From positions 1,766 through 65,765 of the forward strand of contig JACRML010000027.1 of NCBI GenBank assembly GCA_016214995.1: a DNA stretch of 64,000 nt, in the 5' to 3' direction. Position numbers and translations under genes: made by a program. The stretch is from Deltaproteobacteria bacterium. Lineage in GTDB: Bacteria > Desulfobacterota > GWC2-55-46 > UBA9637. This document shows, one piece after another, positions 33,400 through 61,433 of the stretch; position 1 is the stretch's first letter; each line of letters begins with the position of its first letter. The notes under the pieces are model-generated. The model saw nothing but the letters and a program-made list of their open reading frames with translations. It ran no database searches and had not been told where the DNA came from.

Positions 33400-33583
33400 C
33401 CTTCTCCCCTTGCTCCTCTTTGCTTTCTTGCTCAACCTCTACAGAATATTTTCCATCTGCCCATTTGCCCAGGTCAATAAGACTGCATCTTTCTGAACAG
33501 AATGGCCTGAAAGCATTCTCTTGCCATCCGGTTTCCTTGCCGCATACAGGGCATTTAATCTTTGTATTCATCATTTTGTGCAT
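33389..33583 (-). CDS. yacG: DNA gyrase inhibitor YacG (zinc finger)
   Basis: [33 protein letters not shown], the canonical YacG C4 motif followed by an acidic tail. Confidence 0.8.
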
Positions 33584-34920
33584 CAAAAATCAAGCGGACT
33601 TTTCACCTCTTTGACGGTCTGGCTCTTAATCGTATGAGTATATATCATGGTCGTCCTTACATCGCTGTGTCCCAGCATCTCCTGAATAGTGCGAATATCG
33701 TAATTGGCCTGCAAGAGATGCGTTGCAAAACTGTGGCGAAAGGTGTGTGACGACACCCTCTTCAATATCTTTGTCTTCCTCACAGCCCGCCGTATCGCCT
33801 TATTCACATGGGTTTCATGGAGATGATACCTCCTGTATTTGCCCTCATCGGGGACAAGGGTTAATGTCTTGGCCGGAAAGAACCACTGCCAGATCAACTC
33901 CCTCCCGATATTCTTATACTTCTTTTCAAGAAGTCCGTCAACAAACGCTCCCGCATAACCGGCATCGAGGTCTTTTTTATGCAGTTCCGTCACATCGGAG
34001 AGATGCTTCCTGATATCCGGAATGATAGACCTTGGAAGCGGCACAGTCCTGTCTTTCTTCCCCTTCCCGTCATGCACCGTCAATACCCCTGCATCCAAAT
34101 TAAAATTGTGCAGCCTGAGCTTCATGCACTCAAACAACCGGAGGCCGCAACCGTACAAAAGCCTGACCACAAGGTCATAAGGATAATTGAGGTTGGCTAT
34201 CACAGAATCCACTTCCTCCCGAGACAGCACAACAGGTATATATCTGGTTCGCCTGGCCCTCACATTATCGCTCTGGTCTCCGAAATCGGTCTTTAATACA
34301 TGCCTGTACAAAAACAAGAGTGCGTTAAAAGCCTGGTTTTGGGAAGAAGCTGATACGCGGCATTGCACAGCCAGAAAGCGTATGAACTCCTTTACATCGG
34401 ATGGATTCAAGTCAGAAGGTTTCTTGCTTTTTATAAAGGCTTGAAACTTTCTCACCCATGTAGAATATGATCTCAATGTCTTAGGGGAATAATGCCTTAC
34501 CTTAATCTCCGCAAACAGGTCTGAGTATGCCTTCTGCCAATCATACTCTATGCTCCCCTCCTTTTTAATATTCCTCTCGCCCATCATGAGTGAGGGGACT
34601 GTCCCAGATTTACCGGCGGAGTGACACGGAGCGGTAGAATTGGGACTGTCCCCGGCTTTGCTATCTTCCAGCATCTCATAATAAATAGCCACCGCCCTCG
34701 CCGCCTCCTCCTGCATCACAGTAGATTGATTCTTCTCATGCAATTTGATCATGAAGTGCTTAAGGGATTCCCTGTCAGCATACCTGTGACAGTATTTATG
34801 ACAGAAATCAAGATAGTACCTCAACCACTTCTTGTAGTTATTATGAAGGGAATTTGAAACCGATTTTTTATTCAGCAAGAGACTATATTTAGTAAATAAA
34901 GCAGCAGGGATATTTAGCAT
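33583..34920 (-). CDS. intI: Integron integrase (IntI-type tyrosine recombinase)
   Basis: Catalytic R (GCGLRLFE), [10 protein letters not shown] and MIYTH. IntI-specific extra segment [40 protein letters not shown] and C-terminal [13 protein letters not shown]...SPLD. An alternative start at M112 (34587) gives the usual ~334 aa. Confidence 0.85.
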
Positions 34921-35134
34921 GAATACTTATCCTATTTCTTAATATCACTCAAATTGTGGTGCTAACGGGTTAGAAATTATATTTATGATGATTATATATG
35001 TCAAGAAAAATGTTATTTTTTGCTTGACTATACCCTGTTTCTTGGTTAAATAGAGAAAACTTGTTAAATATATAGTTGGGCGGCAGGTGTGGGCAATCGT
35101 AGTTTGTATTCAATCGACCAATAGAGGAAACGAC

Positions 35135-35503
35135 ATGACGACTAGAGACATCATCCAAAACTACTTTGATAGCCTCAAACAGAAGAGTGGGTGGAAGGCC
35201 TTCTTGGCTGATGAAATGACGTTCACCAGCTTTGTTAGCCCGATTAAGCGGGTCGCGGGTAAAGGTGCGTACCTTGAAGCCACAAAGCGCTTCTTCTCCA
35301 TGATCACCGCAGTGGAGGTAAAAAACCTTATTGTGGATGGAGACAGAGCTTGCGCTTTGACCCGATACGAACTTCAGCCGCCTGGCGGCCCTGTCTTTGA
35401 CAGCCACGTCGCCGAAGTATTCGAGGTACGAGATGGAAAGATCGCGTCTCTTGACATCTACTTTGACAGCACGCCTTTCCCAAAGCCTCCGACTGCCGCC
35501 TAA
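35135..35503 (+). CDS. SnoaL/NTF2-like (ketosteroid-isomerase fold) protein, integron cassette 1
   Basis: GAGGAA-N5-ATG; MTTRDIIQNYFDSLKQK...FEVRDGKIASLDIYFD, typical SnoaL-like termini. The stop overlaps the R'' box of attC1. Visibly GC-richer than its surroundings. Confidence 0.7.
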   Translation: MTTRDIIQNYFDSLKQKSGWKAFLADEMTFTSFVSPIKRVAGKGAYLEATKRFFSMITAVEVKNLIVDGDRACALTRYELQPPGGPVFDSHVAEVFEVRDGKIASLDIYFDSTPFPKPPTAA

Positions 35504-35560
35504 CATGGCGTTCGAGAGGGACGCGCCAAAAGCGGCGCGCCCCTCAACTTTACGTTGGCA
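35498..35560 (+). other. attC-like recombination site 1 (63 nt)
   Basis: GCCTAAC-ATGGC-GTTCGAGAGGGACGCGCC-AAAAGC-GGCGCGCCCCTCAAC-TTTAC-GTTGGCA. R''/L''/L'/R' layout with unpaired bases, like classical 60-nt attC sites. Confidence 0.7.
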
Positions 35561-35575
35561 CTCCGCTTCGCGGAG

Positions 35576-35709
35576 TGCCAACGCCGCGCGTATCAATGTT
35601 CTGCTGGCTGGCCTCCGCTTCGCTACGGCCAACCAGCGGATCGAGCGGACTACAGCTACGGCGAGCTCGCTCGCCTTCGCTTCCGCCGCTCATCCGCGCG
35701 GCGTTATAC
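35576..35709 (+). other. attC-like recombination site 2 (134 nt)
   Basis: TGCCAAC-GCCGCGCG ... CGCGCGGC-GTTATAC, an 11-bp perfect basal stem AACGCCGCGCG/CGCGCGGCGTT. Internal stem CTGGCTGGCC/GGCCAACCAG. Confidence 0.55.
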
Positions 35710-35759
35710 ATTAAAAGACATCGGCAGATAACGATAAATTTCCAGCTCTTATTTATTTC

Positions 35760-35788
35760 TTGCCTATAAAAAATAGATTTTATACAAT
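35760..35788 (+). promoter_or_regulatory. Sigma70-like promoter inside cassette, predicted leaderless methyltransferase mRNA
   Basis: TTGCCT (35760-35765), 17-nt spacer, TACAAT (35783-35788). The ATG at 35795 lies 7 nt after the -10 and has no SD. Confidence 0.5.
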
Positions 35789-35794
35789 AATGCC

Positions 35795-36739
35795 ATGAAA
35801 GCATTAGAGACAATAAACCATCTTTTCAGAAAAGAAGAAATAAGCATCGGCAAAACATATCAAATTCAAGCCGAAAGCTCAGGTTTTAGACTACACTATC
35901 AACACCCGAACGGGAAACTTTATCAAGGAGACAGTATCGCTTGGCTAAATTCATTAGAAGACGAGAGTGTAGATTTAATATTTGCTGATCCCCCGTATAA
36001 CATCAATAAAGCAGAGTGGGATAATTTTGAGAGTCAAGAACATTATATAGAGTGGTCATTAAAATGGATTGAACCATCAGCCCGGATTTTAAAGCCGCAC
36101 GGCTCGTTATACGTCTGTGGATTTTCAGAGATATTGGCTGATCTCAAACATCCAACCTCAAAATATTTTAAATCATGTCGCTGGTTAATATGGCATTATA
36201 AGAACAAAGCAAATCTTGGAAACAACTGGGGACGCTCCCACGAAAGCATTATTCATTTTCGCAAATCTTCAAAAGGTAATCTGAACATAGATGATATTCG
36301 TATTCCTTACGGAGCACATACTTTAAAATATCCATCACACCCACAGGCTATAACCAGTCAGTACGGGAATGGCGAGCATCGAGAACATTGGAGGCCACAC
36401 CCAAGAGGCGCAAAACCCAAAGACGTTATAGACATTCCAACCACTTGCAATGGCATGGGAGAAAAAACACCTCATCCCACGCAAAAACCGGAAGAACTTG
36501 TACGTAAGTTTGTTCTGGCATCCTCCAATAAAGATGATATTGTTCTTGATCCTTTTTCAGGTTCAGGCACTACGCTTGTTGTAGCAGAACAGTTAAACCG
36601 TAACTGGTTAGGATGTGAAATAAACACAGAGTATAACGAATTGGCAATTGAACGGCTTGAATACGTTAGAAAAATGTCGGTAGAAGATTGGATCGAACAT
36701 GACAGAAAAGTTCAAGAGAGACGGGAGTCTATCAGGTGA
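35795..36739 (+). CDS. Type II DNA methyltransferase, beta-class (N6-adenine or N4-cytosine)
   Basis: Motif IV IFADPPYN precedes motif I LDPFSGSGTT (beta permutation). Confidence 0.9.
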   Translation: MKALETINHLFRKEEISIGKTYQIQAESSGFRLHYQHPNGKLYQGDSIAWLNSLEDESVDLIFADPPYNINKAEWDNFESQEHYIEWSLKWIEPSARILKPHGSLYVCGFSEILADLKHPTSKYFKSCRWLIWHYKNKANLGNNWGRSHESIIHFRKSSKGNLNIDDIRIPYGAHTLKYPSHPQAITSQYGNGEHREHWRPHPRGAKPKDVIDIPTTCNGMGEKTPHPTQKPEELVRKFVLASSNKDDIVLDPFSGSGTTLVVAEQLNRNWLGCEINTEYNELAIERLEYVRKMSVEDWIEHDRKVQERRESIR

Positions 36740-37653
36740 CATTATCAAAAATAGTCAAGATTGCATCAAATAAGGAAAAATTCTTAACTCTCAAAGATTA
36801 TATCGGATTTTGCAAGTCTTATTTAGAAGTTATTGCTGATGGACTTCAAGCGGTAATAATATCCCAGAACGAAAACCATTACCGTTTTTATCAGTATAAA
36901 AAGGACGGTCATTTCAACATTACGAGACCAATTAATTCAAATCTGATGTATGAATTTTCTGATGTCTCAACGATTGAAAAAGAGTTTTTGAAAATCCTCC
37001 ACTCGGTTAGAGACATTCCCGCAAATGATAAGCATAACCGCGAATTGATAAGACGAGGCATATACACTGTTCAACAATCAATCGGTGCAGCACTTGACGC
37101 TTTACCTGCTGGTGCATCGAACATAGCCAGAAAAGTTAATGGAGATCTTTTTGAGAGGTTTATCCAACTGTTGATTAAAGAAATAGGGGTCAAATGCAAG
37201 ACGGGGACTGTACAAGTTCCGGTATATCTCAACAATGAACTCCAGTTTCATATGAGTTATCAGCATGACCTTCTTCTATACAATAATGATGACTTGAAGG
37301 TTATAGGGTCAGTAAAAACTTCAAGCAAAGATAGAATTGACAAAATATTTCTAGATAAGTTTCTTTACTGTAAACTAACAAATACTATGCTCCCGCATAT
37401 CGCTATTTTCCTGAATGATGTGCAAAGAAAAAACAGCAAGCGGCAAGATGAATATGGAATTAATGCTACCTTCCTTCCCGGACATTTCAAAGCTTTTACA
37501 GTCAAATTAAACCCGCTTGATGGGGTCTATTATTGTGACATTAGACCGAATATGGAGACAGACGACCTCTTGAAAAAACATATACGAACAATAGACCACT
37601 TTTTTTGTTCCGATATTTGGTCTTTCATAGAGAGTTCAAGGCTTATAATTTAA
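36736..37653 (+). CDS. Putative type II restriction endonuclease (PD-(D/E)xK candidate)
   Basis: GTG start overlaps the methyltransferase stop (GTGA). Candidate catalytic block HDLLLYNNDDLKVIGSVKTSSKDR (D ... SxK ... DR) recalls Cfr10I/NgoMIV-type enzymes. No other family assignable. Confidence 0.6.
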   Translation: MTLSKIVKIASNKEKFLTLKDYIGFCKSYLEVIADGLQAVIISQNENHYRFYQYKKDGHFNITRPINSNLMYEFSDVSTIEKEFLKILHSVRDIPANDKHNRELIRRGIYTVQQSIGAALDALPAGASNIARKVNGDLFERFIQLLIKEIGVKCKTGTVQVPVYLNNELQFHMSYQHDLLLYNNDDLKVIGSVKTSSKDRIDKIFLDKFLYCKLTNTMLPHIAIFLNDVQRKNSKRQDEYGINATFLPGHFKAFTVKLNPLDGVYYCDIRPNMETDDLLKKHIRTIDHFFCSDIWSFIESSRLII

Positions 37654-50758: not shown

Positions 50759-50980
50759 TCATTTCTTGAGAAGATAAAATATCAGGCTCACTATAAGGCT
50801 TATAATAATAGAGGTAGTAAGCGGGAAATAGAATGTAAAATCTTCTTTTTTTATATATATGTCTCCGGGAAGGCGGCCTAACCATTTGAAACTCCCACCC
50901 AAACTTAAAAACACGCCGATCCCGAATAAAAACAAACCCACTACTATCAAAAATCTTGCCAACCCGGAAAACTCACTCAT
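50759..50980 (-). CDS. DUF2905 small membrane protein
   Basis: LGRLPGDIYIKKEDFTFYFPLTTSIIISL signature. Confidence 0.75.
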   Translation of the reverse strand: MSEFSGLARFLIVVGLFLFGIGVFLSLGGSFKWLGRLPGDIYIKKEDFTFYFPLTTSIIISLIVSLIFYLLKK

Positions 50981-51051: not shown

Positions 51052-53796
51052 TTAAGATTCTCTTTTCCGCTCCGCACCTGTTTTAGCCTCTTCATACCAG
51101 TTATCAAAGTGATGTTTAAACAGAAGTTTTGAAAATTCAGAATCTTTATTGACCATCTCATAGACGGTTTTTGGGGTTGTTGACTCGAAGCCCTTAAATA
51201 TTATTTCCCCCGCTTTACAAAATATCTCTACATGTTTAATCCCTTCTATAACGAATACGCCAAACCACAATTCTAACAATTTAACGTGGAAGAAAAATGC
51301 GCTTTGTATCTCTTTGTCCAGTTCTGATACCGGAACCTCCCGCTTAAAAAACAATCCTTTTCCTTTAGTTTCTCTTATATATTCCTTTAATGCATCTTCA
51401 CTTAACGCTTGCCCTTTATTATATATATCGCCAGTAATGTTTAATATTCTGAGAGAAGAAAGTGGCTCCCCTGAAACAATTCTTCTGAAATCCTTAAAAC
51501 ATTCCTGCGCCAACACTTGCGCCAAATCTTTTGCCTCAGACACGTTCTTATGTACAATGACATTTTCCAGCTTGTCGTCCAGACTCGGAGGCATGAGCAA
51601 GCCATAAGTCTTATCAATGTAAATATCCAACGGATATTTGAGGTTGTGGTTATTCCTTTTCAGTCTTTCTTCTTCAAGCAGTCTTTCCCTCTTTGCCCTT
51701 ACCATAGAACTTCTATCGGTACCTCTGGCAGCCTCATTTATCTTCTCAGCAATAGCAACCTTTACCTCGCCCCAAAAACCGTCCTTCATTACAATAATCT
51801 CGGCCTTGCTGCCAAATGTGATAAAAAGACCTGCCTCCATCTCCTGCCCTATTGCAGCCTCCAGTTCCTCTCTATATGTTTTTTCCAGCCTGTATTCTTT
51901 TTCCTTTACCTCTAACATCTTGGCTTCTAATCCTTTTTCACCGCTCGATATAGCCTTCTCTATTGAAGCCTGCTCCCTGGCAAGCTCCTCTTTCATTGCC
52001 TCAAAGTTTTTATGAATGGTATGAAGAAGCTCCTCCTCTAACACATGAGGCACCCTTTTTTCCAATTGCTCTTTATATCTCTTCATAATAAGCCGAATAT
52101 CTCCTGCCAGGGCAATAAGATTAGAAACTCCGCCGGAAAATACGGCGGCATCGCCTAATAGGTTATTTAATTTTATGTTTCTTTTATCGCTTGTAATATC
52201 CGGAGTTGAAGAGCCGTATCTGCTCGCAACGTTGAGGATGGGCTTGTAAAAATTTGACTCCATGAAGTCAGCCATGGTGATTTCCTTGGCTCTCAGGGTT
52301 TTCCTTGTAAAATCCTTCATATCTACAAAAAGGTGCCCTTCGGCTTCAACCTCCAATTCTCTGAGAATCGGTCTCTCATCTGCAGAAAAAAGATAGAGCC
52401 TCCCCCTCTCGTATTCCATCCGCAATGTCTCGCTGGAAAACTCGCCGCGCCTATCAACCATCAGCCCACGCATAGAACTTACAAATCTTTCTACATCCTC
52501 GTCAAACTTGTATGCAACAAACGCCTCTATTATATCGGTAATAGCCGCACCCTTTTTCCTGCCTATTCTAAACAAATTGCGAAATGAAGTTTTTGTAATT
52601 GAAGCCACGAACTCCTCTATTACATTGATTCTTTCTAATCTAGCCGTATCATTTTGAAACTGTATCTTTACATCATCTAAACCTTGTTTCAGCCTCGTCA
52701 TTACTTTAGAATCAGTGGACAGCATCTGGATAAGTCTATTATCCGCATATAGTTCAGCAAGCATCGCATTAACCCCTATTCCAGGGGTGTCATAATCCAG
52801 AAGATAATCGCTTATCAGCTGTCTTAAATAATTTATATTAGAAAGCTTGAGGAGCTCTTCTGTAAGAGGTGAATCCTTTTTTACCTCATTCTCCATCGCA
52901 GCGATTATGCCTGCGACATCTTTAGCCTTTGCAGCCGTCTTATCATAAACCGGCCTCAATAAAGAAACCACATTATCCCCAAGCCCATATGGGTTTAAAT
53001 CGCTGTTAATAATATTTCCGCCTTGAATAGTCAGAAAACTCATCGGCGTAAACCATTCCTCAAAGCTTTCCAATTTTGCCGAACTATAGGAAGCCGCTAT
53101 CTGTTTCAGTTCAGATGCCACATTTTTTACAGCAGCTTTATAAACAAAATAGAGGGCAAGCCCTATCACCTGATCCAGTCTTTCGTAGTTAAAGCCTTTT
53201 ACCTTAGCGCTTCTTATAATACTGTCTTTCCTCTTTGCTGTGGCATTGACCATAGCCATAATTGCCAAAATAGAGGTCTTTTCCACGCCTTCCAGACGCA
53301 TCTCTTCAAGCACAGCCTTTCTCAATATTCCCCTAACCAGCGTATAATATCTCTTTCCATATCCATCTGCCCCAAGCCAAGTCTTTAATATTCCGCTATC
53401 AAGCATCGGAGTTGTGGTTAGTATTTCACATGCAATACCTTTCTCTGCTGAATCCGGCAAAAAATAATCTGCCCTGTATGTCTTATCTATAAGGATTGTT
53501 TTAATATCAAGAAGGGATGAGAAGCTGTCCTTTACTTCCTGTTCAGAATTTGGTTCAAAACGTCTTTTTAAAAGCAGTATCAATGACAGAATAGATTTTT
53601 CTATTACAGGTTCATCCTCTACCCCAAACAAGTAAGGTATCTTTAAATCTTTTACAGATTCACCCAGTCGGAATCTCATATAGGCAGGTTCTATCAGCCA
53701 TAATTTGCCTGTATTACAGTCAAACCCTTTCCGTAAAATATCATCAAAGAGATTGAGTCTATCTTTTATGAATTTATAATCGGCGTCTGCTGGCAT
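51052..53796 (-). CDS. Large hypothetical protein (914 aa) with a candidate split class-III-cyclase-like palm domain
   Basis: Long uninterrupted ORF. Residues ~485-695 carry HLFVDMKDFT, LLGDAAVFSG, then a ~90-aa coiled-coil insert, then GLFITFGSKAEIIV...GEVKVAIAEKINEAARG. Confidence 0.6.
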   Translation of the reverse strand: MPADADYKFIKDRLNLFDDILRKGFDCNTGKLWLIEPAYMRFRLGESVKDLKIPYLFGVEDEPVIEKSILSLILLLKRRFEPNSEQEVKDSFSSLLDIKTILIDKTYRADYFLPDSAEKGIACEILTTTPMLDSGILKTWLGADGYGKRYYTLVRGILRKAVLEEMRLEGVEKTSILAIMAMVNATAKRKDSIIRSAKVKGFNYERLDQVIGLALYFVYKAAVKNVASELKQIAASYSSAKLESFEEWFTPMSFLTIQGGNIINSDLNPYGLGDNVVSLLRPVYDKTAAKAKDVAGIIAAMENEVKKDSPLTEELLKLSNINYLRQLISDYLLDYDTPGIGVNAMLAELYADNRLIQMLSTDSKVMTRLKQGLDDVKIQFQNDTARLERINVIEEFVASITKTSFRNLFRIGRKKGAAITDIIEAFVAYKFDEDVERFVSSMRGLMVDRRGEFSSETLRMEYERGRLYLFSADERPILRELEVEAEGHLFVDMKDFTRKTLRAKEITMADFMESNFYKPILNVASRYGSSTPDITSDKRNIKLNNLLGDAAVFSGGVSNLIALAGDIRLIMKRYKEQLEKRVPHVLEEELLHTIHKNFEAMKEELAREQASIEKAISSGEKGLEAKMLEVKEKEYRLEKTYREELEAAIGQEMEAGLFITFGSKAEIIVMKDGFWGEVKVAIAEKINEAARGTDRSSMVRAKRERLLEEERLKRNNHNLKYPLDIYIDKTYGLLMPPSLDDKLENVIVHKNVSEAKDLAQVLAQECFKDFRRIVSGEPLSSLRILNITGDIYNKGQALSEDALKEYIRETKGKGLFFKREVPVSELDKEIQSAFFFHVKLLELWFGVFVIEGIKHVEIFCKAGEIIFKGFESTTPKTVYEMVNKDSEFSKLLFKHHFDNWYEEAKTGAERKRES

Positions 53797-53861
53797 AGAA
53801 TTAAGACAGAAATCAGGGATTAGGGGTTGGAGGCTGGTGGTTTTGCCTCGCTTCTCCTCGC

Positions 53862-54551
53862 TTAAATAGTTGCTGAAACAATCCCTTCAAAAATCTTTTT
53901 TCCGTTCTCCCCTCCAAGAATAGATTCGCACACCCTTTCAGGATGCGGCATAGTACCGAAGACATTCCCAGTTTTATTGATGATGGCTGCAATATTATTG
54001 ACGGAGCCGTTCGGGTTGGCATCTTCTGTGATTTTGCCGTCTTTGTCAGAATATCTGAATATTACCTGATTATTATCCTCTAATCTTTTAATAGTATCTT
54101 GATCTGCAAAATAGTTTCCATCCGCATGGGCAATGGGAATGTTAAGCACCTGATTTTTTTGATACGTCTTTGTAAAGGCGGTCCGGTTGTTCTCTATCCT
54201 TATATGAACATTTTTGCAGATAAATTTGAGCGTCTTGTTTCTCATCAAAACACCAGGCAAAAGCCCTGCTTCGGTCAATATCTGAAAACCATTGCATATA
54301 CCGATAACAAGGCCGCCATTTTTTGCAAATGCGGCTACCTCTTGCATAACCGGTGAGAATCTGGCAATGGCGCCGGTCCTTAAATAGTCGCCGTATGAAA
54401 ATCCGCCAGGGATGATAACACAGCCAAATCCCTTGAGACTTGTCTCCTTATGCCAGATGTATTCTGCCTTTTGATCAAAGATATGCTTTACAGCATGGTA
54501 GCAATCATGGTCGCAGTTGGAACCTGGAAATACTATGATGCCGAATTTCAT
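53862..54551 (-). CDS. purQ: Phosphoribosylformylglycinamidine synthase, glutaminase subunit
   Basis: GATase triad context GICNGFQIL and MPHPER. Confidence 0.92.
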
Positions 54552-54787
54552 TCTATCTCCACCTTATAGTCTTCAACAACAGTATTCGCCAAAAGTTTTT
54601 CGCACATCTCTTTAAGCCGTTTATCTGCATCTTTTTGAGATACGCCGTCAATCTCTATTTCTATAAACTTGCCTATGCGCAATCCTTTGACTTCTTTATA
54701 TCCCATAGATTCCAGCGCCCCGCATACAGCCTTTCCCTGCGGGTCAAGAACTCCTTTTTTCAATGTTACATAAACTTTTGCCTTCAT
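54548..54787 (-). CDS. purS: Phosphoribosylformylglycinamidine synthase subunit PurS
   Basis: [21 protein letters not shown]..., 79 aa. ATG 54787; overlaps purQ by 4 nt. Confidence 0.9.
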
Positions 54788-55221
54788 TTGTTTTCTCCCT
54801 GCAACAAAATTTCTTTGACCTTGCGATGTATATCTTCCAGCAGCGGACGGCTTACGCTGATAAATGTCTTGATGGAGTTCCACCGTATATCAAGATAATC
54901 ATGGGCTACGATATTTCTCAAGACCGCCCATGTCTCTATCTTTTTGCCGAAGTCTTCATGGAAATATCTTGCTCCGAAAGCAAACAACACTTCTTTATAT
55001 GTTTGAGGCATGGGAAAGTCTTCACCGGCAAGAAGAAGCTTGGCCATATCAATAGTTGAATTGACAAGATTTTCAATCCACCGCTCAAGATTTCTGCGTT
55101 TGTCTTTGTCGAACTGATAATCGTTCCATGAATACTCCGCAAATTTCCAAAAATCCGCCAATTCACCGGCAAAAAAATCCAGATGTCTTGCAAGCCGCTC
55201 TCTTTCTCTATTCGCCGGCAT
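54784..55221 (-). CDS. hepT: HepT-like (DUF86/HEPN) toxin
   Basis: RNIVAHDY (Rx4HxY) motif. Its stop overlaps the purS start by 4 nt. Confidence 0.85.
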   Translation of the reverse strand: MPANRERERLARHLDFFAGELADFWKFAEYSWNDYQFDKDKRRNLERWIENLVNSTIDMAKLLLAGEDFPMPQTYKEVLFAFGARYFHEDFGKKIETWAVLRNIVAHDYLDIRWNSIKTFISVSRPLLEDIHRKVKEILLQGENK

Positions 55222-55639
55222 GAGTCCTTATCTCCTCTTTCAGCTTCCAATAGCTTATGACAAATTCCCTGAAATCCTCGGCTTCGGCTGTAACCCTCAT
55301 CATAAAATCAACATACAACCCCCTGTCCTTTATCACAAGAGGCGCACCGCTTATAGCGCTCTCGGCAACGCTCGATGCCGCCCTGTTGAGAACCAACAGG
55401 TCAACCTCTTTGCCTAAAAGCCCCTCTATCTCACGCCATAAAACAGTTTCCCCATCATATCTTGCGTCGCTATCTTCCCATTCCAGTCGTGATGTTTTCG
55501 GTTTGAAATAAACCGCTATATCAACATCCGAATCCATCCCGCCTTTACCTTTTGCCCATGAACCGAAGAGAAAGGCCATAACAATATCGTCCCTCTTTTC
55601 AAAATATGGCTGTAAAAGTGTTATCATTTCATTCTTCAT
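55208..55639 (-). CDS. mntA: MntA-like nucleotidyltransferase antitoxin
   Basis: FLFGSWAKG...DSDVDIAV (GSx10DxD) minimal NTase motif. Confidence 0.85.
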   Translation of the reverse strand: MKNEMITLLQPYFEKRDDIVMAFLFGSWAKGKGGMDSDVDIAVYFKPKTSRLEWEDSDARYDGETVLWREIEGLLGKEVDLLVLNRAASSVAESAISGAPLVIKDRGLYVDFMMRVTAEAEDFREFVISYWKLKEEIRTHAGE

Positions 55640-55733
55640 AAACTACCTTCCCTGCCACAATCGTCTTCACAACCCGTCCCTTCATCTTCCATCCGTCAAA
55701 CGGCGTATTCCTGCTCTTTGATTTTAACTTTTT
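55629..55733 (-). pseudogene. Orphan 3'-terminal fragment of a dihydroorotase gene (duplicate of the pyrC end)
   Basis: Reads [34 protein letters not shown], versus [34 protein letters not shown] at the pyrC C-terminus. 31 nt are identical (55634-55664 = 58441-58471). Confidence 0.75.
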
Positions 55734-55737
55734 GGAT

Positions 55738-55799
55738 AATTCTGGGGACACCATACTGAACTGAACTCTCCCTGAATTGAGTAAGGTGTCCCCGGAATT
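55738..55799. repeat. 15-bp imperfect inverted repeat at the islet edge
   Basis: AATTCTGGGGACACC (55738-55752) ... GGTGTCCCCGGAATT (55785-55799), 32-nt loop. Confidence 0.7.
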
Positions 55800-55811
55800 C
55801 CTGAATCTTTA

Positions 55812-55940
55812 TTAATATCCAGCACCATCTACAGCGCAAACTGTGCAACCTTTTGATTCATCATATTTTGAAACATTGGCAGAACTCACAAGAATGTTTA
55901 CCTCTTTGCTTATCTCCTGTTCAGTTTTTTCAACTTCCAT
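55812..55940 (-). CDS. Candidate RiPP precursor peptide (42 aa)
   Basis: Not in ORF track. GGAAAGGAGGTG-N6-ATG, 26 nt downstream of the radical SAM gene: MEVEKTEQEISKEVNILVSSANVSKYDESKGCTVCAVDGAGY, followed by tandem stops. Confidence 0.55.
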   Translation of the reverse strand: MEVEKTEQEISKEVNILVSSANVSKYDESKGCTVCAVDGAGY

Positions 55941-55966
55941 GTATATCACCTCCTTTCCGTTATAGA

Positions 55967-57217
55967 TCAATTACTCACAACCAAGTCATACATCTTTTTA
56001 GTTTCCAAACACTTTAGCTCCAATGTGCTGTCTTTTTTATAAACCTCCTTGTAATAAGGACAAGTATGACATAATGGAAGACAATTGCATTTTTTACATT
56101 CAGCATCTAATGCAAGAGTTTCTTTTCTATATTCATTTAATTTTTGAAATTGATCCTTAAAAGGCACTTCATGTCTATAATCCACATATTTTTCTCTAAA
56201 CATAACACAAAAATGAATTTTAAAATCTAAAGAGATAAAACACTCTGATATTCCGACATTACAAAAATGTTCACCTTTATCTATCAATTCTTTTCTAAAC
56301 TCTTTTTCACTATCAAATATTTTTTTTAGATTTATTATCTTCTTCTCTGAAAAAATAAATTTGTCTAAACATTCTGGCTCAATTTCATGCTCCTTAGGTG
56401 CGCTATTTCCATCTAATGTATGTGCCATCACAGGATTAATATTGTGTTGGCTATTCATTTTATTACAGAAACGTCTCATGGCATTGAGGCTTGAATAATT
56501 TTCCTTTAATAAAACTGTCTGAATTACAAAGTTGAGATTATTTCTTGATAAAGCATCTATGCCATTTAAAAACTTATTATAATTATTTGCACTTCCTGTA
56601 ATTTGAATATATTCTTCTTCGGAAGAACCATACTGACTGACTTTTATCATCTTTGGGGGGTATTTATTGAAAGTGGCAACAACTTTAGGAATAAATGAGC
56701 CATTTGTTACAATGGAGACCACAAAACCTTTTCTTTTTGCATAAGTATAAATATCTATGAAATCTTTTCTTAAAGTGCATTCGCCGCCAGTAAACCAAAG
56801 AAATAAGACACCACTATCACATAAGTTGTCCAAAAGGTTTATTAATGAATCAAATGAAGGCTCTTTTTTCCCTTGCAGCGGTTTAGCATAGCAATGAATG
56901 CAATCAAAATTACATTGACCCGTAAGTTCAATTCCAACTTTCCATGGGTAAATATCATTTGAATTTGGCTTTGATAGATTCCTTTTGTTGGTGAAATTAG
57001 CTTTATCATTTATTTTCAGAAATTCTTCAAAGATTTGTTGAACTATATTATCCGGTATGGAAGCCTTATGGTTAAGTGTGCATTTTATGTCGCTCTCCAA
57101 AATTATCGCATTTTCATTACAGTATGAAATCTGCGGGTCTATCAACCACATTTTCCCCGCAATATTTCTGATTACTATTCTGTCCCAATATGCAATAAAC
57201 TCTTTTGAATATTTCAT
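55967..57217 (-). CDS. Radical SAM / SPASM-domain peptide-modifying enzyme
   Basis: CNFDCIHC (CX3CX2C). C-terminal auxiliary-cluster cysteines CNVGISEC ... CKKCNCLPLCHTC ... C. ~95-aa N-terminal extension. Confidence 0.88.
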   Translation of the reverse strand: MKYSKEFIAYWDRIVIRNIAGKMWLIDPQISYCNENAIILESDIKCTLNHKASIPDNIVQQIFEEFLKINDKANFTNKRNLSKPNSNDIYPWKVGIELTGQCNFDCIHCYAKPLQGKKEPSFDSLINLLDNLCDSGVLFLWFTGGECTLRKDFIDIYTYAKRKGFVVSIVTNGSFIPKVVATFNKYPPKMIKVSQYGSSEEEYIQITGSANNYNKFLNGIDALSRNNLNFVIQTVLLKENYSSLNAMRRFCNKMNSQHNINPVMAHTLDGNSAPKEHEIEPECLDKFIFSEKKIINLKKIFDSEKEFRKELIDKGEHFCNVGISECFISLDFKIHFCVMFREKYVDYRHEVPFKDQFQKLNEYRKETLALDAECKKCNCLPLCHTCPYYKEVYKKDSTLELKCLETKKMYDLVVSN

Positions 57218-57293
57218 ACTTATTGATTTTTCCTGAATGAAAACATATGAATGAAAACATAAAGAAACATAAATAGAAACAAAGGGGACAGAT

Positions 57294-57524
57294 TTATTTA
57301 AGCATTGCTTCGAAATCTTTGGGTCTTATAATTTTTGTATTATGGAATGAATCTAATACAAGAATATCCTCATCTCCTGTAATAAGATAATCGGCTTTCC
57401 CTTCCAATGCCACTCCAAGCAAAAAGTTATCTTTCTTATCCCTGCAAACATCAACCTTTTCACTTGGCAAAACTACTATTGCATAGCTGTCAAGAAGCGA
57501 AAAGAGTTCTTTGATTCTTTTCAT
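57294..57524 (-). pseudogene. PIN-domain toxin remnant (C-terminal half only)
   Basis: VCRDKKDNFLLGVALEGKADYLITGDEDILVL aligns with the C-half of the PIN protein at 22064..22498. The N-terminal ~65 aa, including the first acidic residue, are absent, with a stop 9 codons upstream. Confidence 0.55.
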
Positions 57525-57744
57525 ATCGCCTTTGCCTGACAGATTCTACCTCCCCGGTAATCTCCTCTATTGTTATAGGATATTTTCGGGCAGACTCCCT
57601 GAACTCTTTCAGAAGGCTTTTAAACCTCGCTGCAAATAGCTCTTTTTCCAGCATCGTCAACACCTCTATCTTTTTTGCCAATGGCAAACTCTTAACTGCC
57701 TTTTTAATTTCATTTAAACCTGAATCTGAAATTGTTTTTAGCAT
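57490..57744 (-). CDS. Putative antitoxin-like small protein (partner of the decayed PIN)
   Basis: GAAGGAGG-N7-ATG, 84 aa helical protein. Position and overlap with the PIN remnant are the only evidence. Confidence 0.4.
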   Translation of the reverse strand: MLKTISDSGLNEIKKAVKSLPLAKKIEVLTMLEKELFAARFKSLLKEFRESARKYPITIEEITGEVESVRQRRYEKNQRTLFAS

Positions 57745-58435: not shown

Positions 58436-59737
58436 TTATCCTTCATAAACTACCTTCCCTGCCACAATCGTTTTTGAAGCCATTCCCTTCATCCTCCATC
58501 CATTAAACGGAGTGTTTTTGCTTTTGGATTTTAATTTTTTAACATCAACAACCCATTCCATATTCAAATCAACAATTGTTATATCAGCATCTTTACCATT
58601 TGCAAGAGAGCCTTTTGTAGAAAGTCCTAAAATCTTTGCGGGGTTCGCAGAGAGTTTTTCAACAAGGGTGTTTAATGAGACAACCCCTTCGTCAACAAGT
58701 CTCAAAGATAGAGGTAGCGCTGTTTCAAGACCAATTATCCCGTTTGCTGCCTTATCAAACTCAACATCCTTTTCATCAATATTTTGAGGAGCATGGTCTG
58801 TTGCTATCGCATCTATGGTTCCGTCTTTAAGCCCAATCTTTATCGCATCAATATCGGTTTTGGCTCTAAGCGGAGGATTCATCTTGGCATTGGTATTATA
58901 ACCCATAACAGCCTCGTCTGTTAAAGTAAAATGATGCGGCGCAGCCTCTGCTGAAATATTTAATAACCCCCTTTGTTTTGCGTTTCTTACAAGTTCGACG
59001 GCCCCCTTCGTGCTGATATGGGCGATATGCAATCTCCCTCCCGTAAGCTCGGCCAGCGCAATATCCCTCGCAACCATAATATCTTCTTTGGCATTTGGAA
59101 TGCCTCTGAGCCCCAGTTTTGTTGATATAAAACCCTCGTTCATTACGCCGTCCGGCGCAAGCCCGGTATCCTCACAGTGGCTTATAATTAGAAAATTAAA
59201 AAGTTTTGCATATTCCATGGCCAATCTCATAAAGCCGCTGTTCACAATGGGTCTTCCGTCATCTGACAACGCAACGCATCCCGAATCTTTTAACTCCCCT
59301 ATCTCTGCAAGCGTCTCTCCTTTCAATTCTTTGCTTATTGCGCCCACAGGAAATACATTCACAGCGCCTTCTTCCGCAGCTTTTTTAAGTATATACCTTG
59401 CGACAGAGGCATTGTCGTTTACAGGGTTTGTATTTGCCATACATGCAATTGACGTGAATCCTCCGGCTGCGGCTGCCATTGTGCCTGTCTTTATCGTTTC
59501 TTTATATTCGTAGCCAGGCTCCCGCAAGTGCGTGTGCATGTCAATAAATCCTGAACAGACAATTAGGCCGGTTGCATCTATGATATTCCAGCCATCAGAC
59601 TGGGAATCTGGGGCTGGAGTAGAAAGATTCGGTTTTACAGCGGCAATTTTCCCGCCGACTGCATACACATCAAACAGACCGTCGATGCCGCTTGCAGGGT
59701 CAATCACCCTTCCGCCTTTGATCAAGAGCCTATTCAC
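58436..59737 (-). CDS. pyrC: Dihydroorotase
   Basis: [10 protein letters not shown] metal motif and DHAP near the C-terminus. 433 aa. Confidence 0.93.
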
Positions 59738-60656
59738 GAGCCCCTCCCATGAGCAAGTAAAATAAAGCCATCCTCACAGCAACGCCATTCTTCACCTGTT
59801 CAAGTATAAGCGAATACTTCCCGTCTGCAACATCGGATGAAATCTCAATGCCCCTGTTTACCGGCCCGGGATGAAGTATCACAACATTCTTTTTTGCATA
59901 TTCAAGTTTTTTGGAATCAAGACCAAACAACTGTGAATACTCTCTTGCTGTCGGAAACAAGCCTGTCTTCTGCCTTTCCAGTTGAATCCTCAACATCATT
60001 ATAACATCCGCATCCTTTATTGCATCTTCAATCCTATTAAACGCCCTGCATCCGGTTTTCTCAATTTCACAAGGCATCATTGTCGGAGGCCCTGCAATAT
60101 TTACCTCAGCCCCAAGCTTTGCAAAGCCGTATATATTGCTCCTTGCAACCCTTGAATGAAGGATATCGCCGATTATTGCAATCTTTAATCCTTGTATCTT
60201 GCCCAACCTTTGCTTCACGGTTAATAAATCAAGAAGCGCCTGGCTTGGATGCTCATGCGTGCCGTCGCCTGCATTTATAACAGAACATCTAAGAAGCCTT
60301 GATAAGATTTGAGGCGTACCACTTGAAGGATGCCTCAAAACGATGCAGTCGGGGCTCATTGCCTCAAGATTCTTTGCAGTATCCTTTAATGTCTCTCCTT
60401 TTACAGCACTGCTTGACGACGCAGATATATTTATTGCATCAGCGCTCATCCTCTTTGCAGCAATCTCAAAAGACGTTCTTGTCCTTGTGGATGCCTCATA
60501 AAACAGATTTATGATAGTCCTGCCTCTTAGAGTAGGAACCTTTTTTATTTCCCTGTCAGACACCTCTTTGAAAGATTCGGCAGTAGATAAAATAAGTTCT
60601 ATCTCATCCCTGCCAAGATCTTCAATTGTTAATATATCTTTCCTTTTAAGCCTCAT
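59730..60656 (-). CDS. pyrB: Aspartate carbamoyltransferase catalytic subunit
   Basis: STRTR, HPSQ and HPGP motifs. Confidence 0.95.
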
Positions 60657-61188
60657 TCTCTGCCTCTACAACTACCTCATCAACACCATCCGTTTCCTTT
60701 AAATGCACCTTAACTGTTTCCTGTATTGACGTCGGCACATTCTTGCCAACATAATCAGGTCTTATGGGAAGCTCCCTGTGCCCCCTGTCAATCAAGACAG
60801 CAAGATGAATGCTGCTCGGCCTGCCGAAATCCATTATTACATTCATGGCTGCCCTGATTGTCCTTCCGGTGAACAGGACATCATCAACAATAATAACCTT
60901 TTTATTATCAATTGGAACAGGTATATCTGTCTCTTTTAATATCGGCTGGTCGTGCTTCATTCCTATATCATCCCTGTAAAGCGTTGCATCAAGGCTGCCA
61001 ACCGGCAGGTTGATGTTTTCTATACTCTTTAATATATCCCTTAATCTCTTTGCAATATGCACTCCACGCGTTGGAATACCAAGGATGATTATGTCTTCAA
61101 TACCCTTGTTTTTTTCAATAATCTCGTGTGCTATCCTTGTAAATGCCCTTTCTATGCCTTTTGCATCTATGATACTTTTTTTCTTCAC
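60646..61188 (-). CDS. pyrR: Bifunctional pyr operon regulator / uracil phosphoribosyltransferase PyrR
   Basis: PRPP motif [13 protein letters not shown]. 180 aa. Confidence 0.93.
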
Positions 61189-61285: not shown

Positions 61286-61327
61286 TAAAAAAATACCTCC
61301 TTGCCTTACTAACTGACAAGGAGGTAT
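61286..61327 (-). terminator. Intrinsic terminator of the pyr leader (attenuator)
   Basis: Minus strand ATACCTCCTTGTCAGTTAGTAAGGCAAGGAGGTAT followed by TTTTTTT. Confidence 0.8.
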
Positions 61328-61360
61328 CACAAAAATTATAATATAAGTTTTCATTTCTAA

Positions 61361-61387
61361 TCCCCTTCTTAACCTCTCCGGGCAAAA
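61361..61387 (-). promoter_or_regulatory. PyrR binding loop
   Basis: Minus strand TTTTGCCCGGAGAGGTTAAGAAGGGGA contains CCGGAGAGGTT, close to the PyrR consensus UCCAGAGAGGCU. Lies 5' of the terminator. Confidence 0.7.
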
Positions 61388-61433
61388 TTAAAAGGGCAGC
61401 CAATCTTACTCCAAAATGGATATTTATCTTTGG

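Follow-up and report, generated by a model that had tools for sequence, protein, structure and literature searches.

The gene described here lies at 51052-53796 on the minus strand of a 64,000-nucleotide stretch (the window) of contig JACRML010000027.1 from a Deltaproteobacteria bacterium (assembly GCA_016214995.1), and its product is probably an active nucleotidyl cyclase of class III type that has diverged strongly and is under the control of a novel N-terminal domain, a reading to which we assign a probability of roughly 65%. The protein would be a soluble, multidomain class III enzyme whose cyclase homology domain (CHD) has diverged past recognition by sequence hidden Markov models (HMMs); the assignment to the class III cyclase fold, taken alone, is very probably correct. 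The coding region is one complete ATG-to-stop open reading frame (ORF) of 914 amino acids plus the stop codon, and the protein contains no transmembrane segment. An initial annotation of the window had recognized elements of a cyclase-like domain in residues ~485-695 and had called the protein an orphan. Its conversion of these residues to 51712-52344 is correct for the minus strand, and all of the cyclase-like elements that it named were found in the positions and order that it gave. The orphan label was wrong: 25 close homologues, 278 representative clusters and 233 species genomes were found. The whole gene and its catalytic region are as follows.

51052-53796, minus strand: the whole ORF, a member of an unannotated family of ~900-1020 amino acid proteins (ORF listing, translation and homologue searches; the N-terminus lines up with those of the homologues).
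51142-52365, minus strand: the cyclase-homology-like catalytic region with its insertions, residues ~478-885 (AlphaFold 2 (AF2) model, Foldseek and collinear hhalign matches).

The full-length AF2 model, which was built with 23 sequences, has moderate confidence (predicted local distance difference test score (pLDDT) = 79); residues 1-440 are wholly helical, and confidence is low around residues 665-692. In a Foldseek search of the PDB with this model, the high-probability matches were already class III cyclases, but their E values exceeded 0.05. The AF2 model of residues 441-914, for which 83 sequences were used, has a pLDDT of 92.3 and a predicted template modelling score (pTM) of 0.87. Its elements follow in the order β (485-492), α (494-502), α (507-525), β (542-547), β (550-555) and a long helix that runs into a three-helix insertion (557-649), after which come β (656-663), β (666-672), β (676-682) and α (684-692); i.e., the topology is β1-α1-α2-β2-β3-α3...β4-β5-α4, the palm βααββαβ arrangement, and each motif lies on its expected element. 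Foldseek ranks 1-28 in the PDB for this model are all class III adenylyl or guanylyl cyclases (probability 0.96-1.00, best E value = 2.8e-4), and the template modelling score (TM-score) normalised by target reaches 0.53-0.54. These 28 entries include bPAC, Cya2, OaPAC, a phytochrome-cyclase fusion, mammalian C1/C2, soluble guanylyl cyclase and Ma1120. Rv1900c occupies ranks 30 and 33, and neither GGDEF nor Cas10 entries are among the top 50. The palm or cyclase fold that the initial annotation had suggested is thus predicted for residues 441-914, with class III cyclases as its nearest structural neighbours. In Sinha & Sprang 2006, as that work is cited in PMC13060281, an Asp at the end of β1, a Gly-Asp at the β2-β3 turn and an Asn/Arg pair on a helix are given as class III cyclase positions. 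The corresponding motifs of the window protein are listed below.

52306-52335, minus strand: HLFVDMKDFT, residues 488-497, at the end of β1 and the start of α1, with D492 as the putative first metal-binding Asp (alignment, model, hhalign).
52132-52161, minus strand: LLGDAAVFSG, residues 546-555, on the β2-β3 hairpin, with D549 as the putative second metal-binding Asp (alignment, model, hhalign).
51790-51831, minus strand: GLFITFGSKAEIIV, residues 656-669, β4, the counterpart of the RIGIHTG strand (alignment; strand 656-663 in the model).
51721-51771, minus strand: GEVKVAIAEKINEAARG, residues 676-692, β5 and α4, with N687 and R691 as the putative transition-state Asn/Arg (alignment; helix 684-692 in the model).
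51151-51222, minus strand: FCKAGEIIFKGFESTTPKTVYEMV, residues 859-882, the C-terminal β-hairpin, with K868 as the putative triphosphate-binding Lys (alignment; weak hhalign match).

Conservation was counted mainly in an alignment of 83 members with 22-81% identity; in a smaller alignment of 23 sequences (A1), the catalytic motifs are among the invariant columns. D492, which closes the strand 485-492 and is followed by the helix 494-502 in the AF2 models, is present in 82/83 members, and F490 and T497 of the same motif are present in 76/83 and 74/83, respectively. G548 (79/83) and D549 (78/83) form the turn between the strands 542-547 and 550-555, and G555 is invariant (83/83); both of the Asp residues that had been proposed as metal ligands are therefore conserved in the family. 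The β4 motif carries G656 in 82/83, G662 in 83/83 and E666 in 63/83 members. Around α4, N687 is found in 75/83, R691 in 77/83, G692 in 83/83 and R695 in 82/83. The α4 motif reads G/A683-E-K-I-N687-E-A-A-R691, in which N687 and R691 are one helical turn apart in the model, and their register was taken from the G-x3-N-x3-R spacing. A fourth element, which had been missed earlier, is AGEIIFKGFES..P..VYE (residues 863-880), which resembles the CHD β7-β8 pattern 'g.v.vKGkg..v.vy.l' (G863 in 83/83, K/R868 in 77/83, G869 in 77/83 and E880 in 83/83 members).

D492, G548, D549, N687, R691 and K/R868 occur all together in 72/83 members, including the window protein. Ten members lack an expected key residue, a count that leaves out P0074, whose sole missing residue, D492, is an alignment gap; 7 of these 10, e.g., P0053, P0118, P0147, P0151 and P0174, lack two or more. 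Coupled loss is the pattern expected of residues that work together in one catalytic site. Because the key residues are near-invariant in 83 homologues down to 22% identity and lie on the expected CHD secondary-structure elements, we regard the motif pattern as beyond chance.

In the degenerate members P0118, P0053, P0147, P0151 and P0174, several catalytic residues are gone together and the structural glycines are kept. The loci L069 and L077 come from the same metagenome-assembled genome (MAG; CAYJRR01), so that at least one genome has two family copies. By analogy with C1/C2 heterodimers, degenerate copies might pair with intact ones.

From the ORF, its family and conservation, the predicted fold and the structural neighbours, we infer the residue roles, dimerisation, catalysis, product and regulation as follows. 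By analogy with class III cyclases, D492 and D549 would bind two Mg2+/Mn2+ ions, N687 and R691 on α4 would position the ribose and stabilise the α-phosphate transition state, and K868 on the last β-hairpin would bind the triphosphate. The reaction would convert a nucleoside triphosphate (NTP) to a 3',5'-cyclic nucleoside monophosphate (cNMP) and pyrophosphate. Because all of the catalytic residues are in one chain, we propose that the active sites are located at the interface of a head-to-tail homodimer, as in bacterial class III enzymes. The N-terminal helical domain would most likely control the activity on some signal.

Several observations weigh against an active cyclase. The fold evidence is a predicted model and not a solved structure, the Foldseek E values are modest, and the hhalign register around α4, which is of low confidence, disagrees with the motif register. 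The full protein (E ≤ 0.01), the spliced domain (E ≤ 10) and 49 members (E ≤ 1) all failed to match PF00211, and a purpose-built CHD HMM detected 0/83 members at E ≤ 1e-3. The profile-profile comparison is supportive at the level of sequence but on its own not significant, and this weak support has to be counted on the same side. Next to the gene, the loci examined have no conserved cNMP receptor, phosphodiesterase or other partner in signalling. The base-specifying pair, Asn545/Val680, is non-canonical, i.e., neither the Lys/Asp(Thr) of enzymes that use ATP nor the Glu/Cys of those that use GTP. Finally, CHD-like folds without cyclase activity exist, AdvA being an example (PMC13060281).

In the profile-profile comparison by hhalign, the β1 motif was the sole match to a narrow CHD profile of mostly mammalian sequences (P = 0.03), and the global mode was meaningless. 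A broader profile of 17 sequences (11 bacterial plasmid-borne cyclase domains and 6 mammalian ones) gave a P value of about 1e-3 and a probability of about 20%. The hhalign alignment places D492 on FADIxGFT and G548-D549 on KTIGDAYMA, and residues 843-886 weakly match the CHD β7-β8 hairpin, collinear with the main match (P = 0.065 and 0.15). The domain sequence with the coiled coil removed matched nothing in Pfam (E ≤ 10) or in the PDB, and PF00990 (GGDEF) matched neither the window protein nor the 49 members. When 972 ORFs of related loci were searched with the CHD HMM, neither canonical cyclases in the neighbourhood nor the family members themselves were picked up.

A non-catalytic pseudo-cyclase, in which the CHD-like fold would serve as a scaffold, nucleotide sensor or interaction module as in AdvA and PA4961, draws on the last of the points above, the precedent of a CHD-like fold without adenylyl or guanylyl cyclase activity (PMC13060281), and on the fact that HMM-level similarity to active cyclases was not found. 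The losses of motifs in P0118, P0053, P0147, P0151 and P0174 also indicate that the scaffold persists without them. Against these, the D, D, N, R and K residues are kept in 72/83 members over deep divergence, their losses are coupled, and the window protein has all of them, whereas AdvA-type proteins are without canonical catalytic residues (PMC13060281); we therefore consider a pseudo-cyclase improbable.

The base-specifying positions were located by motif register. N545, three residues ahead of the Gly-Asp, occupies the Lys/Glu position, where 67 of the 83 members have Asn and 10 have Ser; V680, three residues ahead of the Gly that caps the helix, occupies the Asp/Cys/Thr position, where 74 members have Val and 7 have Ile. 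The base-specifying pair separates adenylyl from guanylyl cyclases, and it is not a defining trait of the class III superfamily. At the first base position Rv1900c likewise has Asn, and near the second a hydrophobic residue occurs in soluble adenylyl cyclase, so that ATP is still plausible as a substrate. With Asn545/Val680 in place of the canonical pair, the substrate is not predictable, and ATP, giving cyclic AMP (cAMP), is our default guess.

The same positions, Asn545/Val680 rather than Lys/Asp or Glu/Cys, would also suit an enzyme in which the palm/CHD scaffold carries out a different nucleotidyl-transfer chemistry, possibly tied to metabolism. Formation of a pyrimidine or non-canonical cNMP or of a linear or cyclic oligonucleotide, nucleotidylation of a small molecule and NTP pyrophosphohydrolysis are the options, and nickel-pincer (Lar) cofactor formation and nucleotide biosynthesis are examples of the pathways concerned, as opposed to second-messenger signalling of the classical kind. 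The invariant DIYNxGxALSxEAL in the second insertion could remodel the pocket in such an enzyme. However, cNMP-forming class III cyclases are marked by just such an Asn-x3-Arg helix and Lys-Gly hairpin, and the top structural neighbours are all adenylyl or guanylyl cyclases, and we judge a change of chemistry to be unlikely. A more specific form of this idea, in which the pocket remodelled by Asn545/Val680 and the DIYNxGxALSxEAL insertion makes a product other than cAMP or cyclic GMP (cGMP), such as a non-canonical nucleotide in cyclic or linear form, or the protein is a metabolic nucleotidyl transferase, in which the enzyme is found lineage-wide in uncultured Thermodesulfobacteriota and Myxococcota, and in which the N-terminal domain is a new kind of sensor, is in our estimate quite unlikely.

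The genomic context bears on the same question. In the clade with 43-54% identity, a convergent ThiI-like-larE pair is located downstream in 42/80 loci, including L003, L010, L012 and L013; LarE was called by TIGR00268 (344 bits), and its gene adjoins the family gene tail-to-tail. In the distant ~1000 amino acid clade, the divergent upstream gene is larB in L004 (7125-7871; NF033503, 301 bits), and the same position is occupied by a gene for a 248 amino acid AIRC-domain (LarB-like) protein in L086 (5110-5856) and L087 (5124-5870). In the window, a 65-bp gap separates the gene from purS-purQ, which precede it on the same strand, and in the clade of the window protein these genes are just upstream. 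The recurrent larE/larB placement hints at nickel-pincer-nucleotide cofactor metabolism, and the presence of two different nickel-pincer-cofactor genes flanking one family may stem from an ancient cluster or point to a link in function. These adjacencies speak for a different, metabolic chemistry; on the other hand, each of these adjacencies, Lar as well as pur, occurs in a single clade only, where the synteny could have been inherited, and the larE gene is convergent and thus not co-transcribed. Moreover, L088, the fourth locus of the ~1000 amino acid clade, is without LarB, and neither the window nor the fetched Myxococcales loci have a LarE or LarB match. Nothing recognisable is common to the Myxococcales loci, and ORF clustering over 85 loci gave no partner conserved across clades.

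Downstream of the gene in the window, the order is a DUF2905 gene, a terminator-like hairpin (50648-50631), an LPG_synthase_C gene, a GH57 branching enzyme gene, phoH and a 7TM-HD gene. The DUF2905-LPG_synthase_C-GH57 order recurs in the closest relatives L001, L002 and L006, though not in all relatives, and the pyrB-pyrC-purS-purQ block upstream is common to close relatives. Apart from the hairpin after the DUF2905 gene, promoter and terminator scans were no better than those of shuffled sequence. The adjoining gene is as follows.

50759-50980, minus strand: a DUF2905 membrane protein of 73 amino acids, directly downstream, which belongs to the context and lies outside the enzyme (it follows the family gene in at least 2 close relatives).

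A defence-type role had been raised as one option in the initial annotation; on this reading, the protein would be the signal-making cyclase of a Pycsar- or CBASS-type anti-phage system. Pycsar cyclases are class III-like enzymes, and in the window a HepT/MntA pair and a radical-SAM gene of low guanine-plus-cytosine (GC) content lie ~1-3.5 kb upstream. The TA/rSAM block is missing from the close relative L001, however, which indicates an independent insertion. The GC content of the gene itself (0.40) is native, matching that of its neighbours, and the family is distributed by lineage and not by island. The neighbours are housekeeping genes that vary by lineage (purS/purQ, DUF2905, GH57 branching enzyme, LarE, peptidase M18). 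PADLOC gave no match (0 families), and no effector-like neighbour is conserved beside the gene at the loci examined; we therefore regard a defence role as very unlikely.

Returning to the candidate cyclase, the evidence fits a single CHD that spans residues ~478-885 and is interrupted twice. The first insertion (residues 566-650) is the K/E-rich coiled-coil segment that had been noticed earlier between the second and third elements; it is 85 residues long, contains 19 Glu and 11 Lys, and is predicted as three long helices. Its length varies, and in the clade of P0024, P0025 and P0030 it is ~100 residues longer (A1 columns 695-800), so that the length of the insertion is free to vary and the flanking catalytic motifs are fixed. 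A second conserved α/β insertion (~750-840) probably also splits the catalytic domain, and its family-specific motif, DIYNxGxALSxEAL, includes N793 in 82/83, G795 in 83/83, A797 in 79/83, S799 in 77/83 and L803 in 80/83 members. An alternative in which residues 717-890 are a second, degenerate CHD that arose by internal duplication was considered and rejected (hhalign P = 0.23 against domain 1 and P = 0.41 against the CHD).

The initial annotation had further described large uncharacterised N- and C-terminal regions. This holds for the N-terminal one, for which no relative is detectable; the C-terminal one does not stand as a separate region, because it probably gives the CHD its last β-hairpin (863-880). 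The ~440-residue helical N-terminal domain is presumably a novel regulatory or sensor module. Its conserved residues include F42, G45, P54, R79, W140, K160 and P269 (NPY motif). It matched nothing in Pfam, NCBIfam or the PDB, Foldseek gave low-probability matches only, and a Foldseek search of BFVD (viral library) returned nothing significant and no lead on this domain. The features concerned are the following.

52477-53796, minus strand: the N-terminal all-helical domain, residues 1-440 (AF2 secondary structure, invariant columns).
52384-52416, minus strand: the pre-domain motif EYERGRLYxFS, residues 461-471 (G465 and Y468 invariant in the 23-member A1).
51847-52101, minus strand: insertion 1, residues 566-650, Glu/Lys-rich, three long helices that extend α3 (composition, alignment, model).
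51379-51429, minus strand: the family-specific motif DIYNKGQALSEDALKEY, residues 790-806, within the second α/β insertion (alignment; β-hairpin and helix in the model).

A word-indexed search returned 25 homologues with 28-80% identity, all of ~900-1020 amino acids, and all of them are unnamed or "hypothetical protein" with no precomputed Pfam domains; a second profile search likewise gave hypothetical proteins only. When 1.84 billion representative proteins were searched exhaustively with a profile, at least 278 clusters (50% identity) were found at E ≤ 1e-3, 164 of them at E ≤ 1e-30. A scan of one genome per GTDB species found the family in 233 genomes. Every one of the best 80 of these 233 is a MAG; those among the 80 with a taxon label belong to Deltaproteobacteria, Thermodesulfobacteriota, Myxococcales or Myxococcaceae and, in one case, Proteobacteria, and the remainder are unclassified. 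The distribution follows lineages rather than islands, i.e., the gene is inherited along lineages.

The window protein has no match in Pfam, NCBIfam or PADLOC; its sole sub-threshold match, to T4_Rnl1_C, was judged to be noise. The 49 diverse members were likewise without a match in the Pfam, NCBIfam, PADLOC and PDB sequence searches. Searches of PDB sequences by phmmer and by profile gave only a coiled-coil match to gasdermin (E = 0.46-1.7), and the 49 diverse members matched neither a cyclase nor a GGDEF family in Pfam (E ≤ 1). We did not find the family described in the literature. Its members have the predicted class III fold and the putative catalytic residues; because they are missed by the curated HMM and carry no canonical specificity pair, we file the family as an unannotated, divergent branch of the class III superfamily rather than as an ordinary member.

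Upstream of the ATG of the 914 amino acid ORF (53797-53840, minus strand; …cctaatccctgatttctgtcttaattctATG), a Shine-Dalgarno-like purine run is absent. The ATG start is nevertheless supported, because the N-termini of the homologues align.

Other features of the window lie further upstream. The block at 54784-57744, between pyrC and purS, contains the HepT/MntA type VII toxin-antitoxin pair (54784-55639), the radical-SAM/SPASM-like gene (55967-57217) and small ORFs, and GC content falls to just 30% at 56000-56999, inside the radical-SAM gene; pyrC and purS are contiguous in L001, which suggests that the block was inserted recently. As listed, the purS ORF (54548-54883, minus strand) begins at GTG and overlaps the HepT ORF by 100 bases. 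Its true start is probably ~100 bases further downstream, since the PurS Pfam match starts only at residue 34. At 61288-61399 on the minus strand, just upstream of pyrR-pyrB-pyrC (58436-61188), Rfam identifies a PyrR-binding-site RNA (55.5 bits, gathering score 54), i.e., a pyrimidine attenuator that heads the gene row ending in purS-purQ and the cyclase-like gene. Elsewhere, 33583-37653 contains a tyrosine integrase (33583-34920), an N6/N4 DNA methylase (35795-36739) and an overlapping 305 amino acid ORF without a Pfam match (36736-37653), which may together be a small mobile restriction-modification island.

The family shares its predicted βααββαβ CHD fold with the bacterial class III adenylyl and guanylyl cyclases (PF00211), including bPAC (5MBG/5NBY), Synechocystis Cya2 (2W01), Mycobacterium avium Ma1120 (4WP8) and Mycobacterium tuberculosis Rv1900c (1YBU). 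As in these enzymes, β1 ends in an Asp, the β2-β3 hairpin carries a Gly-Asp, α4 an Asn-x3-Arg and the last hairpin a Lys-Gly, and the full set of catalytic residues is found in one chain, as in the homodimeric bacterial enzymes. Unlike them, the family has no PF00211 match at the thresholds tried, a helical insertion of 85-190 residues between α3 and β4, a second conserved α/β insertion before the last hairpin, Asn/Val as the base-specifying pair, and the novel N-terminal domain of ~440 residues. The canonical WGDTVNxASR motif is also altered, in that ~seven residues (V677 to G683) separate the 'WGE' and 'KINEAAR' halves in the family.

The mammalian membrane and soluble adenylyl cyclases (C1-C2 pseudo-heterodimers; 1CJK/1CJT, 7PDE and 4CLS) share the fold and are among the structural matches. 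Residues 725-885 of the family have a β-α-α-β-β-α-β order of their own, and an intramolecular C1/C2-like arrangement is conceivable; in contrast to the division of labour in mammalian C1/C2, however, the Asp pair and the Asn/Arg pair of the family are both in the first half. AdvA from Acinetobacter baumannii and PA4961 from Pseudomonas aeruginosa likewise have a CHD-like fold that is hidden from sequence searches within larger unknown or misannotated proteins, but they are without the canonical catalytic residues and the dimerisation arm (PMC13060281), whereas the present family keeps the catalytic residues. The palm-type core recurs in GGDEF diguanylate cyclases and in the Cas10/mCpol palm domains, where the β2-β3 hairpin likewise bears an acidic residue. 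Unlike GGDEF and Cas10 proteins, the family has no GG[DE]EF or GGDD and carries LGDAxxFSG and a class III-type Asn-x3-Arg helix instead.

In bacteria and eukaryotes, cAMP and cGMP come mainly from class III cyclases, and PF00211-type HMMs are the means by which genome surveys tally these enzymes. The present family (at least 278 clusters, 233 species) shows that an entire clade of probable cyclases can escape this kind of count, and its size would allow it to be a standard chromosomal gene in two phyla. The chemistry itself is probably familiar, and current understanding is not overturned. The Asn/Val specificity positions, together with two conserved insertions, make the family a natural experiment in the remodelling of the CHD scaffold. 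If its members are inactive, they would form a second large group of CHD-derived non-enzymes beside AdvA. If they are active, they would represent an added source of second messenger in organisms that are known from metagenomes only, together with a new regulatory domain.

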